Assembly: GCA_964636085.1 (NCBI GenBank)
Contig: CAZWPQ010000009.1
Span: forward strand, 43,387 to 66,990
From: an uncultured Nitrososphaerota archaeon
Lineage (GTDB): Archaea; Asgardarchaeota; Njordarchaeia; Njordarchaeales; Panguiarchaeaceae
Direction of reading: 5' to 3'
DNA length: 23,604 nucleotides
Under the pieces are notes generated by a model. The model had not been told where the DNA came from, searched no databases, and saw only the letters and a list, made by a program, of their open reading frames with translations. Made by a program: the position numbers and the translations under genes. The stretch's first letter is position 1. Every line of letters begins with the position of its first letter. Positions 12,154 through 14,668 of the stretch are shown here, in pieces.

Positions 12154-14292
12154 ATGAGAAAACACAAGAAAAAAAGGGAGAAGAAGCAAACAGTACTGGA
12201 CGTGTTCCTATCTAACCAACAATCTATGAATGCTAGCACATTAAACAAGGATATTGCTAACTCCCTACAAACACCTTCACCCAGTTTGGATAAATTGATC
12301 TCCACCTATGATCTCAAAAGGAGTGGAGGGCGCATAGTAGACCTAACAGAGCTGATGTCCATCTTTATAAATTCTATCAAATTGCCCGAGATATCCTCCC
12401 CGCAGATGCCCCGATTCAAATTTAGTGAGATAACAAATATAAACTCTAGAATTCTCGTAGTGACTGAGAAACCAAAGGTAGCTACTGCACTTGCTAAAGC
12501 GTTGTCTGGAAAGGATTATAAGATCTTAAGATTCGGACGGATAACCGTATACTCGCTCCGCTACAGGGGGAGACACATAACTATAGTCCCCCTTAGGGGG
12601 CATCTCATCGAATATGACACAAGGAGGGAATATAAGTCATGGCACACAACGGATCCATTAAGGATAATACAGGATGAGAAAAGCCTTTTCCGCAAACATC
12701 GATACCCTAGCATAGTTAAAATCCTCAGATCCTTAGCCCAAAAACATGACGTTCTATTCATAGCTACCGATTCTGATGAGGAGGGAGAAAATATAGGTTG
12801 GGAGGCATACCAGATTATAAAGACTGTGAAGAATATGCCCGTATTTAGAATATGGTTCTTATCGCTCCAACCAAGCGAACTTATAGATGCTTTTAACAAT
12901 CCAACAAAACCAATCATAAACTGGGCCCTAGCACCCGAGGCCAGAAAAATAATAGATGCTTTTAGTGGTTTCTCATCAACTAGGGAACTTACTATTATCG
13001 GCAGGAAATCTGGACATATTGCAAAATTACGGCCTCAGGGGGGGATACTATCACTAGGACGTGTACAGAGCCCCACCCTATACTTACTATTTCTGAGGGA
13101 AAGATACATCCGTAACTATAAACCCAGACGATACTGGTCACTTACGGCTGAAGTTTTGCACGACAACATAAACATTAATACGGAGCATATAAAATCACCA
13201 TTCCAGCAGGAGGAAATCGCTAAACAAATATATAAAAAAGTTGTGAACGCAAAATATTGTAGTGTAATTAAGATAGATTCAAAAACTGAGCGGCAACGCC
13301 CCGAGGGGCCGCTGAATACCAATAAAGCCCTTATAATGCTGAACAAATTATTGAAGCTACCATCCAGCAAAGCCATGAAAATTTTGGAGGACTTATATTT
13401 GGAGGGACTGATCACCTACCCAAGGACAGACACGGATCGCTATCCAGATAACTACAACCATAGAGCTAACATTGAAAGGCTTTGTAGACATAAAGAACTA
13501 GGTAAATTTGCAATGAAAATAATTTCCATGGGTTGCAGATTACGCAAAAATGGAAGAAGACTAATTGGAGATCATCTCCCCATAACTCCTATTGACGTGC
13601 CAAAACAAAATACTAGGTTATCGGATACCCATATCAAGGTCTATAATTTAATTGTACGCCGATATCTATCTCTCTTTATGAATGATGCCATACTAGTCAA
13701 AGCAAAGGTTTACCTGGGGGTCGATGGGGAAACTTTTGTTGTCAACATTACAAAAATAAAAGAACAAGGCTTTCTCCAAGTATATCCCTTTAACAAACCA
13801 AAAACATGTGATATAGAACTCCAACCAGGGCATAAATTGATTATTAAAAACATCAAACTTCAGAAACGGTTCACAAAACCACCAAGCCGACTGAGTGAGG
13901 CCGAACTATTAGCATATATGGAGAGGCTAGGTTTGGGGACAAAAGCAACAAGATCAGAACACATCCAAAAACTGGTTAGCCGTAAGTACATCATACGAAA
14001 AAAAGGTAGGCTTCATCTATCCGAGTTAGGTTACCGGTTATGCGAATTTCTTGAGAAAATTTGGCCCGAATTTCTACAGCCCTATTTTAATGCTTATGTA
14101 CATACATTGCTTCGAAAAATCATGAATGGTGAAATTGATTATAAGGAGGCTGTCTCCAAGGCCAGAGAGAAGTTTATCGAAATATTCCTTAGACTCCGAA
14201 AATCTAGAGATGAACTCCTTAGAGTGCTTTCATCAGTACCATCAACGGATACATCCAATCGAAAAAGACCCCGTGCAAAAAGAAGAAAATAA
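12154..14292 (+). CDS. topA: DNA topoisomerase type IA (archaeal TopA/Topo III-like)
   Basis: TOPRIM VTEKPKVA and ATDSDEEGENI; SLGRVQSPTL; catalytic GLITYPRTD (Tyr at 13417-13419); GLGTKATR. No C-terminal Zn ribbons; about 95-aa N-terminal extension. Confidence 0.95.
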   Translation: MRKHKKKREKKQTVLDVFLSNQQSMNASTLNKDIANSLQTPSPSLDKLISTYDLKRSGGRIVDLTELMSIFINSIKLPEISSPQMPRFKFSEITNINSRILVVTEKPKVATALAKALSGKDYKILRFGRITVYSLRYRGRHITIVPLRGHLIEYDTRREYKSWHTTDPLRIIQDEKSLFRKHRYPSIVKILRSLAQKHDVLFIATDSDEEGENIGWEAYQIIKTVKNMPVFRIWFLSLQPSELIDAFNNPTKPIINWALAPEARKIIDAFSGFSSTRELTIIGRKSGHIAKLRPQGGILSLGRVQSPTLYLLFLRERYIRNYKPRRYWSLTAEVLHDNININTEHIKSPFQQEEIAKQIYKKVVNAKYCSVIKIDSKTERQRPEGPLNTNKALIMLNKLLKLPSSKAMKILEDLYLEGLITYPRTDTDRYPDNYNHRANIERLCRHKELGKFAMKIISMGCRLRKNGRRLIGDHLPITPIDVPKQNTRLSDTHIKVYNLIVRRYLSLFMNDAILVKAKVYLGVDGETFVVNITKIKEQGFLQVYPFNKPKTCDIELQPGHKLIIKNIKLQKRFTKPPSRLSEAELLAYMERLGLGTKATRSEHIQKLVSRKYIIRKKGRLHLSELGYRLCEFLEKIWPEFLQPYFNAYVHTLLRKIMNGEIDYKEAVSKAREKFIEIFLRLRKSRDELLRVLSSVPSTDTSNRKRPRAKRRK

Positions 14293-14336: not shown

Positions 14337-14343
14337 TTTATAA
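14337..14343 (+). promoter_or_regulatory. TATA box for the sRNA-rps27e transcript
   Basis: TTTATAA ends about 22 nt upstream of the predicted sRNA 5' end. Confidence 0.5.
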
Positions 14344-14364: not shown

Positions 14365-14423
14365 GCCGATGATGAAGAGGTGATCCACTAAAGCAACAAT
14401 GACGAGGCCTTTGTGTCTGAGGT
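14365..14423 (+). ncRNA. Box C/D methylation-guide sRNA
   Basis: C box ATGATGA 14369-14375; 12-nt guide 14376-14387; D' CTAA 14388-14391; C' ATGACGA 14399-14405; 11-nt guide 14406-14416; D box CTGA 14417-14420; terminal stem GCC/GGT. Size and spacing are canonical for archaea. Confidence 0.85.
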
Positions 14424-14431
14424 GTATAGCT

Positions 14432-14668
14432 ATGGCTGAAGAAATAAGAAGGATTATTGAGGAGCTAGATGAAAAGGAGAAAAAAATTGCTAGATTCCCA
14501 AGAAGCACATTCATCAGGGTAAGATGCAAACAATGCGGCCATGAAATTCTGACATTCTCTCATGCATCCACTAAGGTATATTGTCCTAGCTGTAAAAATC
14601 TTATTGTTGAACCTACTGGCGGTAAAGCAAAAATACATGGGGAAATATTGGAGGAATATTACTACTAA
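14432..14668 (+). CDS. rps27e: 30S ribosomal protein S27e
   Basis: PRSTFIRVRCKQCGHE..FSHA...VYCPSC...VEPTGGKA zinc ribbon. SD GAGGTG before ATG 14432. Confidence 0.96.
   Translation: MAEEIRRIIEELDEKEKKIARFPRSTFIRVRCKQCGHEILTFSHASTKVYCPSCKNLIVEPTGGKAKIHGEILEEYYY

Follow-up and report, generated by a model that had tools for sequence, protein, structure and literature searches.

A conserved box C/D RNA upstream of rps27e in Njordarchaeia with a guide complementary to the 16S rRNA tail and a predicted target at U1532

The spacer between topA and rps27e in a 23,604-nucleotide stretch of an uncultured Njordarchaeales genome (herein the window) carries a compact element that is best explained as a genuine box C/D guide sRNA, which pairs with the 16S rRNA 3' tail and directs 2'-O-methylation of U1532; we consider this account, taken as a whole, probable. 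Its parts differ in strength. Comparative sequence evidence makes it very likely that the element functions as a C/D sRNA and pairs with the 16S tail through its D' guide, and it is likely that the sRNA directs Um1532, a modification not reported in the literature. The anatomy of the element, its conservation, its complementarity to the tail, and the genes for the C/D proteins are direct observations.

Anatomy and Genomic Setting of the Element

The sequence-only reading had described a full C-D'-C'-D layout in the topA-rps27e spacer, with a noncanonical CUAA as box D'. Both descriptions hold: the boxes are read directly (Table 1), recur in 13 genomes, and lie within a gap of 139 nt. A box C of the RUGAUGA type stands near the 5' end and a box D near the 3' end, the arrangement that marks C/D RNAs, and the spacers of 12 and 11 nt agree with the archaeal norm of ∼12 nt (PMC7229835). 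Box C' (AUGACGA) is an acceptable variant; in the D' of the window copy the G needed for a sheared GA pair is missing. Most orthologues could form terminal stems of 2 to 6 bp, with differing sequences (CC/GG in family f1; GG/CC in families f2 and f3); because the scoring allowed free offsets, the support that they lend is weak.

Table 1. Features of the sRNA element and its surroundings (positions are those of the window; identity is the mean pairwise identity among orthologues)
Feature	Position	Strand	Identity	Basis or remark
topA (type IA DNA topoisomerase)	12154–14292	+		Pfam Topoisom_bac 2.3e-95, Toprim; not part of the element
TATA-like TTTATAA, candidate promoter	14337–14343	+		By eye; center about 25 nt before the proposed sRNA 5' end
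Terminal stem, short	14365–14368 (5' strand)	+		GCC pairs with GGU at 14421–14423
Box C, AUGAUGA	14369–14375	+	0.95	Sequence reading; conserved in orthologues
D' spacer (guide), 12 nt	14376–14387	+	0.96	Holds GAGGTGATCCA at 14377–14387
Guide core, GAGGUGAUCC	14377–14386	+		Complementary to 16S G1529–C1538 (Escherichia coli numbering)
Fifth base upstream of D'	A14383	+		Marks predicted target U1532
Box D', noncanonical CUAA (DNA CTAA)	14388–14391	+	0.69	Sequence reading
Loop between D' and C', 7 nt	14392–14398	+		
Box C', AUGACGA (DNA ATGACGA)	14399–14405	+	0.83	AUGNNGA in orthologues
D spacer, 11 nt	14406–14416	+	0.44	Low conservation; mostly A-rich in orthologues
Box D, CUGA (DNA CTGA)	14417–14420	+	0.96	Sequence reading
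Flanks of the element			about 0.3	
GAGGUG, likely rps27e Shine-Dalgarno	14419–14424	+		Overlaps box D and the 3' stem strand
rps27e (78 aa)	14432–14668	+		Pfam Ribosomal_S27e 1e-19

Thermodynamic folding of the element gave no signal over shuffled sequences (z = 0.36). Such an absence is usual for the C/D class, the fold being uninformative for a protein-scaffolded RNA. At gathering thresholds no Rfam family matched in the window. In E-value mode, about eight C/D families matched 14365 through 14422 on the + strand only, at 14 to 24 bits vs. gathering cutoffs of 38 to 54; among these, sR1 (RF01152), sR41 (RF01126), sR22 (RF01275), and sR14 (RF01145), with E-values of 0.007 to 0.03 and scores of 17 to 22 bits, share the length and box layout of the element. 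Only the boxes are matched, and the element is therefore a member of none of these families; weak matches to several families are what a new C/D sRNA sharing only the boxes gives. Across the 2.4-Mb genome a C/D pattern with a relaxed D' matched 11 times, as against no match in the reversed control; long SD-like words are uncommon in this genome, the 10-mer GAGGTGATCC having just two occurrences.

Genes for fibrillarin (3e-95) and Nop (Nop5; 4e-67) are both found on contig C11, and one for an L7Ae family protein (2e-27) on contig C24. With these proteins encoded, and with a 12-nt spacer and D'-like box in 13 genomes, the earlier assignment of the element to the box C/D sRNAs is upheld. A strict C-D'-C'-D pattern retrieved nine further canonical sRNAs from the genome and none from its reverse; 8 of their 18 guides pair over 9 to 11 nt with the rRNAs of the same-genus genome G001, vs. 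6% of shuffled guides. Judged by these predicted pairings, the 10-bp match of the window guide is typical for the organism, and CGGA serves as D' in other sRNAs of the same genome. One canonical C/D sRNA, on contig C34 (+ strand, from 14375), has guides that pair with nucleotides 6 through 15 and 46 through 55 at the extreme 5' end of G001 16S, and two further sRNAs (contigs C15 and C3) pair near nucleotides 28 through 45; with the tail guides described below, guides thus seem to cover 16S at both of its ends.

The stretch is present in DNA runs from hydrothermal-vent and sediment metagenomes. The upstream neighbor of the element differs in family f3, so linkage to topA is not conserved, and rps27e lies directly downstream in 11 of 13 genomes, with 10 to 19 nt between box D and the start codon. 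A/T-rich hexamers occur 20 to 38 nt upstream of box C in all copies; since the spacer is itself AT-rich, the candidate promoter in Table 1 is a weak call. Within genus g1, conservation begins at ATG 14432 (GTG in G004), which, rather than position 14433, is the rps27e start. The ATG at 14399, taken as the start by a mechanical ORF list, is box C' and is not a conserved start in relatives. A conserved upstream ORF from this ATG was ruled out, as frames and stops differ among genomes; calling the gene from there adds 11 codons to rps27e (14399 through 14431), and annotation pipelines could err likewise. Downstream of rps27e, 14562 through 15737 and 15744 through 17168 encode proteins with weak GIFT-domain and ABC_transp_aux Pfam matches, and a similar gene also follows rps27e in f3.

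The GGUG of the likely Shine-Dalgarno (SD) sequence GAGGUG begins 11 nt before ATG 14432. For the genome at large the SD is GGUGA(U): GGTGA peaks at −11/−10, with 135 occurrences near ORF starts vs. 19 further upstream. GGUGA(U) pairs with 16S A1531 through C1536, so that U1532 and C1533 fall inside the SD:anti-SD helix. The alternative that GAGGTGATCC is the SD of rps27e was ruled out: it ends 45 nt before ATG 14432, and a proper SD (GAGGUG) is present. Because the SD is conserved, the rps27e mRNA starts upstream of it and the sRNA is most likely its leader; from this arrangement, rps27e is probably on the same transcript as the sRNA. The overlap of box D with the SD is restricted to genus g1, and in f3 the SD follows box D by 5 to 10 nt. 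Two copies, in G005 and G011, lie away from rps27e. The conserved function therefore cannot depend on rps27e and the unit works alone, while a local coupling of sRNA and rps27e in g1 is possible.

Conservation across Njordarchaeia

The class sample comprised 14 species genomes in four families. Comparison with relatives, which the sequence-only reading had proposed, yielded single-copy orthologues in 13 of the 14 genomes, spanning three families and conserved in boxes and guide. The pattern of box C plus guide had exactly one match in 11 of 14 class genomes and none in the reversed control; one of these 11, in G007, turned out to be a copy of the sister family described below, and the remaining three genomes carry an identical guide behind the box C variant UGAAGA. 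The window-family sRNA was not found in G007 (77% complete), where extra matches are ordinary SD sites of ribosomal-protein genes. Conservation was counted by script from a box-anchored alignment, a MAFFT alignment having misaligned the 3' halves.

Among the 13 orthologues, box C reads AUGAUGA in 10 and AUGAAGA in 3. The D' spacer is 12 nt long, has the pattern A-GAGGUGAUCC-(A/U), and leads into a D'-like box at a constant register; its ten core bases do not vary, position 12 holds a noncomplementary A in every copy, and position 1 is A or U. Box D' is more varied (CUGA in 2, CCGA in 4, CGGA in 4, CUAA in 2, CUAG in 1), with the canonical CUGA in three genomes if the shifted sister-family copy of G007 is counted; its GA is kept in 10 of 13 and absent in the window copy, G002 (CUAA), and G003 (CUAG). 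The D'-C' loop spans 3 to 9 nt, C' is AUGNNGA throughout (13/13), the D spacer measures 10 to 12 nt, and box D is CUGA in 12 and CAGA in 1. This pattern, read from aligned sequences (identities in Table 1), is characteristic of a C/D sRNA in which a single guide is functional. No match of at least 8 nt to G001 16S or 23S was found for the D spacer of any orthologue; it is apparently an orphan or degenerate guide, leaving half of the RNA looking idle.

Outside the class no real copy was found: neither family's pattern has one in the phylum sample (386 and 237 genomes outside the class), and the window family has none across one genome per prokaryote species, with patterns strict enough that diverged guides could escape them. 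The 39 non-Njordarchaeial matches (37 bacterial, one in Methanospirillum, and one in Thermoplasmata) are without a C/D layout, and most of them read like the coding word D-E-E-V-I. Matches in G306, G014, G109, G161, G300, and G324 were likewise rejected, as they are without boxes or fall inside ORFs.

The 16S Tail and Its Predicted Guides

The host assembly (83% complete, 2.4 Mb, 102 contigs) contains neither 16S nor 23S rRNA, and the rRNAs of same-genus G001 were used instead. The complete 16S of G001 ends ...GCGGAUCACCUCCU, and in all 13 16S genes of relatives with a match reaching the 3' end the tail reads GGATCACCTCCT (GGAUCACCUCCU); the pairing considered here presupposes a host tail of GGAUCACCUC. 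Contigs of three DNA runs compared with the G001 16S 3' region were fragmentary and mixed from several organisms; one short contig from the probable source run covers the tail with its last 13 bases unchanged, too weak a link to call it the host 16S. In G001 itself, the 23S (+) and 16S (−) genes are adjacent and convergent (contig C11 of that genome, 390761 through 396110; L020, L104), so that one operon transcript is impossible, and its 16S is atypical just before helix 45 and in the 3' strand of that helix (GTAAGGCGAAACAAGG and GGTGCGGGCGG).

An exact 11-base match of the guide to the 16S tail had been claimed. Ten of these bases stand, the guide core pairing 10/10 with 16S 1505 through 1514 of G001; the eleventh, A14387, faces a C in that genome. 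The duplex with the relatives' 16S thus has the ∼9 to 10 bp, spanning the fifth base upstream of D', that are looked for in a C/D guide. That fifth base is A14383, which pairs with the U of GGAUCA, so U1532 is the predicted target, in agreement with the earlier proposal. The invariant bases are exactly positions 2 through 11 upstream of D', both in the window family and in its sister family. Published work (PMC7229835, citing Yang et al. 2016) describes the Nop5 dimer as capping the guide–substrate duplex, with a limit of 10 nt within the 12-nt archaeal spacer; the invariant positions match this limit, so selection has preserved precisely those bases that are open to use by a C/D RNP. The main doubt about Um1532 is the degenerate D' in the window copy and two congeners, which could make the internal k-loop weaker. 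In vitro, however, Sulfolobus RNPs tolerated mutated boxes in an archaeal sRNA well (PMC7229835).

A search with the 9-mer GAGGTGATC revealed a second sRNA on contig C7 (78166 through 78215, + strand; locus L129, about 1500 through 1549), with box C, the spacer GGGAGGUGAUCA (78173 through 78184), D' CGGA, C' AUGAAGA, a 12-nt spacer, and box D. Members of its family occur in 13 of 14 class genomes, the exception being G011 (66% complete), where none was found. Ten bases are again invariant (GGAGGUGAUC, positions 2 through 11) and pair with 16S G1530 through C1539, a register one base beyond that of the window guide, for which C1533 is the predicted target. The D guide of this sister sRNA is conserved within families, its f3 version pairing near 16S position 910 (the ACUUAAAGG stretch) and its f1 version with 16S 719 through 728 of G001. 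A third tail guide occurs in G005 of family f2 (contig C121; L118, 1432 through 1483), with the spacer GCAGGAGGUGAU and D' CUGA, and predicts C1535; it would pair up to or past the last mature 16S bases and, were the flank like that of G001, could act on the precursor alone. Taken with the window family, the sister and third guides therefore tile the 16S tail of the class with two or three guides. About 28 nt downstream of the sister sRNA, at about 78244 through 78295 (+) of contig C7, lies a tandem C/D sRNA with box C, an 11- to 12-nt spacer, D' CGGA, C' AUGACGA, a 12-nt spacer, and CUGA. The sister sRNA of G007 (contig C12; L040/L119, about 1500 through 1552) overlaps the 3' end of a 356-aa ORF in antisense orientation; by eye, that ORF seems to begin like an RNA methyltransferase of the NOL1/NOP2/Sun type.

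Methylation of this part of 16S is known from two other archaea. In Nanoarchaeum equitans, Seistrup et al. (2017; PMC5389701) found Um1528, Gm1530, and Am1534 by MALDI-MS and RiboMeth-seq, assigned them to sR25, to the D' guide of sR20, and to the D guide of sR13, respectively, and placed Am1534 within the anti-SD; the fragment (Um)G(Gm)AU shows U1532 to be unmodified there (PMC5389701). The tail-complementary spacers of sR20 and sR13 stand in earlier supplements, where no target was at first predicted for them (Randau 2012, PMC3491384; Dennis et al. 2015, PMC4644070). The window sRNA resembles both in being a compact archaeal C/D sRNA with a 12-nt spacer complementary to the single-stranded 16S tail, including anti-SD bases, and the two systems are alike in that several guides tile the tail and both organisms are hyperthermophiles. 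They differ in the predicted site, U1532, and in lineage, which is Asgard (Njordarchaeia) rather than Nanoarchaeota; moreover, sR20 and sR13 each have a functional second guide (for 23S Cm1920 and 16S Am1408), whereas the D spacer of the window sRNA is an orphan. We claim no homology between the N. equitans sRNAs and that of the window beyond the boxes and the guide imposed by the target.

The 16S of Ignicoccus hospitalis carries Cm1533, with a guide called unknown by the authors (PMC5389701). The supplement of Dennis et al. (2015; PMC4644070) lists the I. hospitalis sRNA IHOsR305 with the spacer GGGAGGTGATCA, identical to that of the host's sister sRNA, which predicts C1533, and not to that of the window sRNA; on our own reading of that supplement, IHOsR305 may be the missing guide for Cm1533. 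N. equitans is without RsmA/Dim1, and its sRNAs were suggested as a replacement checkpoint (PMC5389701). A similar loss is ruled out for Njordarchaeia, in which the gene is present in 14 of 14 genomes, and in this respect they therefore resemble Ignicoccus, which likewise retains RsmA and in which Cm1533 was measured. The novelty implied by the sequence-only reading was accordingly too high, as guided 2'-O-methylation in or next to the anti-SD had been published for N. equitans and I. hospitalis (PMC5389701). Since sRNA-guided Gm1530 and Am1534 in the former and Cm1533 in the latter are on record (PMC5389701), no new principle is involved; new here, on the evidence of sequence comparison, are the predicted Um1532 site, the lineage, and the conserved link to rps27e.

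Mechanism, Alternatives, and Significance

In the mechanism that we propose, 14365 through 14423 (+) encodes a C/D guide RNA of about 55 to 60 nt. A promoter just upstream would drive its transcription as the leader of the rps27e message, after which it would be trimmed to an RNP-protected core, with L7Ae, Nop5, and fibrillarin assembling on the C/D and C'/D' motifs. The D' spacer would then present GAGGUGAUCC, at positions 2 through 11, to 16S G1529 through C1538, and fibrillarin would 2'-O-methylate U1532 while the sister sRNA (C7, 78166 through 78215) guides modification of C1533. Methylation may stiffen and protect the single-stranded tail in a vent thermophile, and the bound RNPs may hold the tail during 30S assembly. 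From expression and RNP assembly through to methylation and its benefit, these are steps that we infer.

The RNP might instead, as the sequence-only reading had also allowed, act mainly as a chaperone or gatekeeper, its pairing with the tail delaying pre-16S folding or 3' maturation or barring immature 30S from mRNAs, with methylation secondary or absent. Such a role was proposed for N. equitans sR13 by Seistrup et al. (PMC5389701) and is discussed for archaeal sRNAs, and it would accord with a D' that is degenerate in three g1 copies while the guide is invariant, with the competition of two sRNAs for the same ten bases, and with the pairing of other host sRNAs to the extreme 5' end of 16S. 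Yet the core sits in the exact catalytic register (2 through 11) within a 12-nt spacer in all copies, the one-base offset of the two families suits adjacent methylation sites and not simple masking, and with RsmA/Dim1 in every class genome no checkpoint needs replacing. We therefore hold it unlikely as the main role, although chaperoning and methylation are compatible and may coexist. An extended form of the idea, in which the two tail sRNPs form an anti-SD gate until late 30S assembly and sRNA and S27e synthesis are coupled in cis, strikes us as rather improbable. Each transcript would then yield either the sRNP or S27e, a reading of the overlap of box D and stem with the SD in g1 that we regard with equal reserve.

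That the element serves chiefly its neighbor, as a cis-acting rps27e leader in which S27e synthesis is tuned by a k-turn that binds L7Ae at the ribosome-binding site or by a strong decoy SD 45 to 55 nt upstream, with the C/D appearance counting only as a binding site for L7Ae, is very improbable, even though in 11 of 13 genomes the element immediately precedes rps27e, at 10 to 19 nt, leaving no room for a separate promoter, and in g1 the SD has bases in common with box D and the 3' stem. Archaeal regulation by L7Ae through k-turns in 5' UTRs is reported (Daume et al. 2017; PMC5539422), and the C/D k-turn likewise falls within a few bases of the ribosome-binding site; the k-turn in the window differs in lying within a complete guide RNA that is also found away from gene starts. 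Against a cis role stand the G005 and G011 copies away from rps27e, the sister family, which has the same type of guide at unrelated loci, and the separation of box D from the SD in f3; moreover, it is the guide that is invariant, not the bases around the SD, and no upstream ORF is conserved, the frames after the C' ATG being different. An AT-rich spacer that happens to hold box-like and SD-like words would also account for the lack of an Rfam family at gathering score and for a folding energy no better than that of shuffles. This is scarcely credible given single-copy orthologues in 13 genomes with conserved boxes and guide, reversed-pattern controls of 0, and out-of-class matches that are coding or without boxes; the comparative sequence data refute chance resemblance for practical purposes.

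For Njordarchaeia, a thermophilic Asgard lineage for which we found no C/D sRNAs described in the papers searched, two class-wide conserved guide families are added. Thinking on how C/D guides work is unchanged by the finding. Were the gate and the cis coupling both real, the supply of a small-subunit protein would be linked to the maturation of small-subunit RNA. The shared rps27e transcript would offer a natural case for the excision of an sRNA from archaeal mRNA leaders. The predictions are precise, Um1532 and Cm1533 both falling inside a GGUGAU-type SD:anti-SD helix, and they would extend 16S-tail methylation in hyperthermophiles to a third archaeal lineage.
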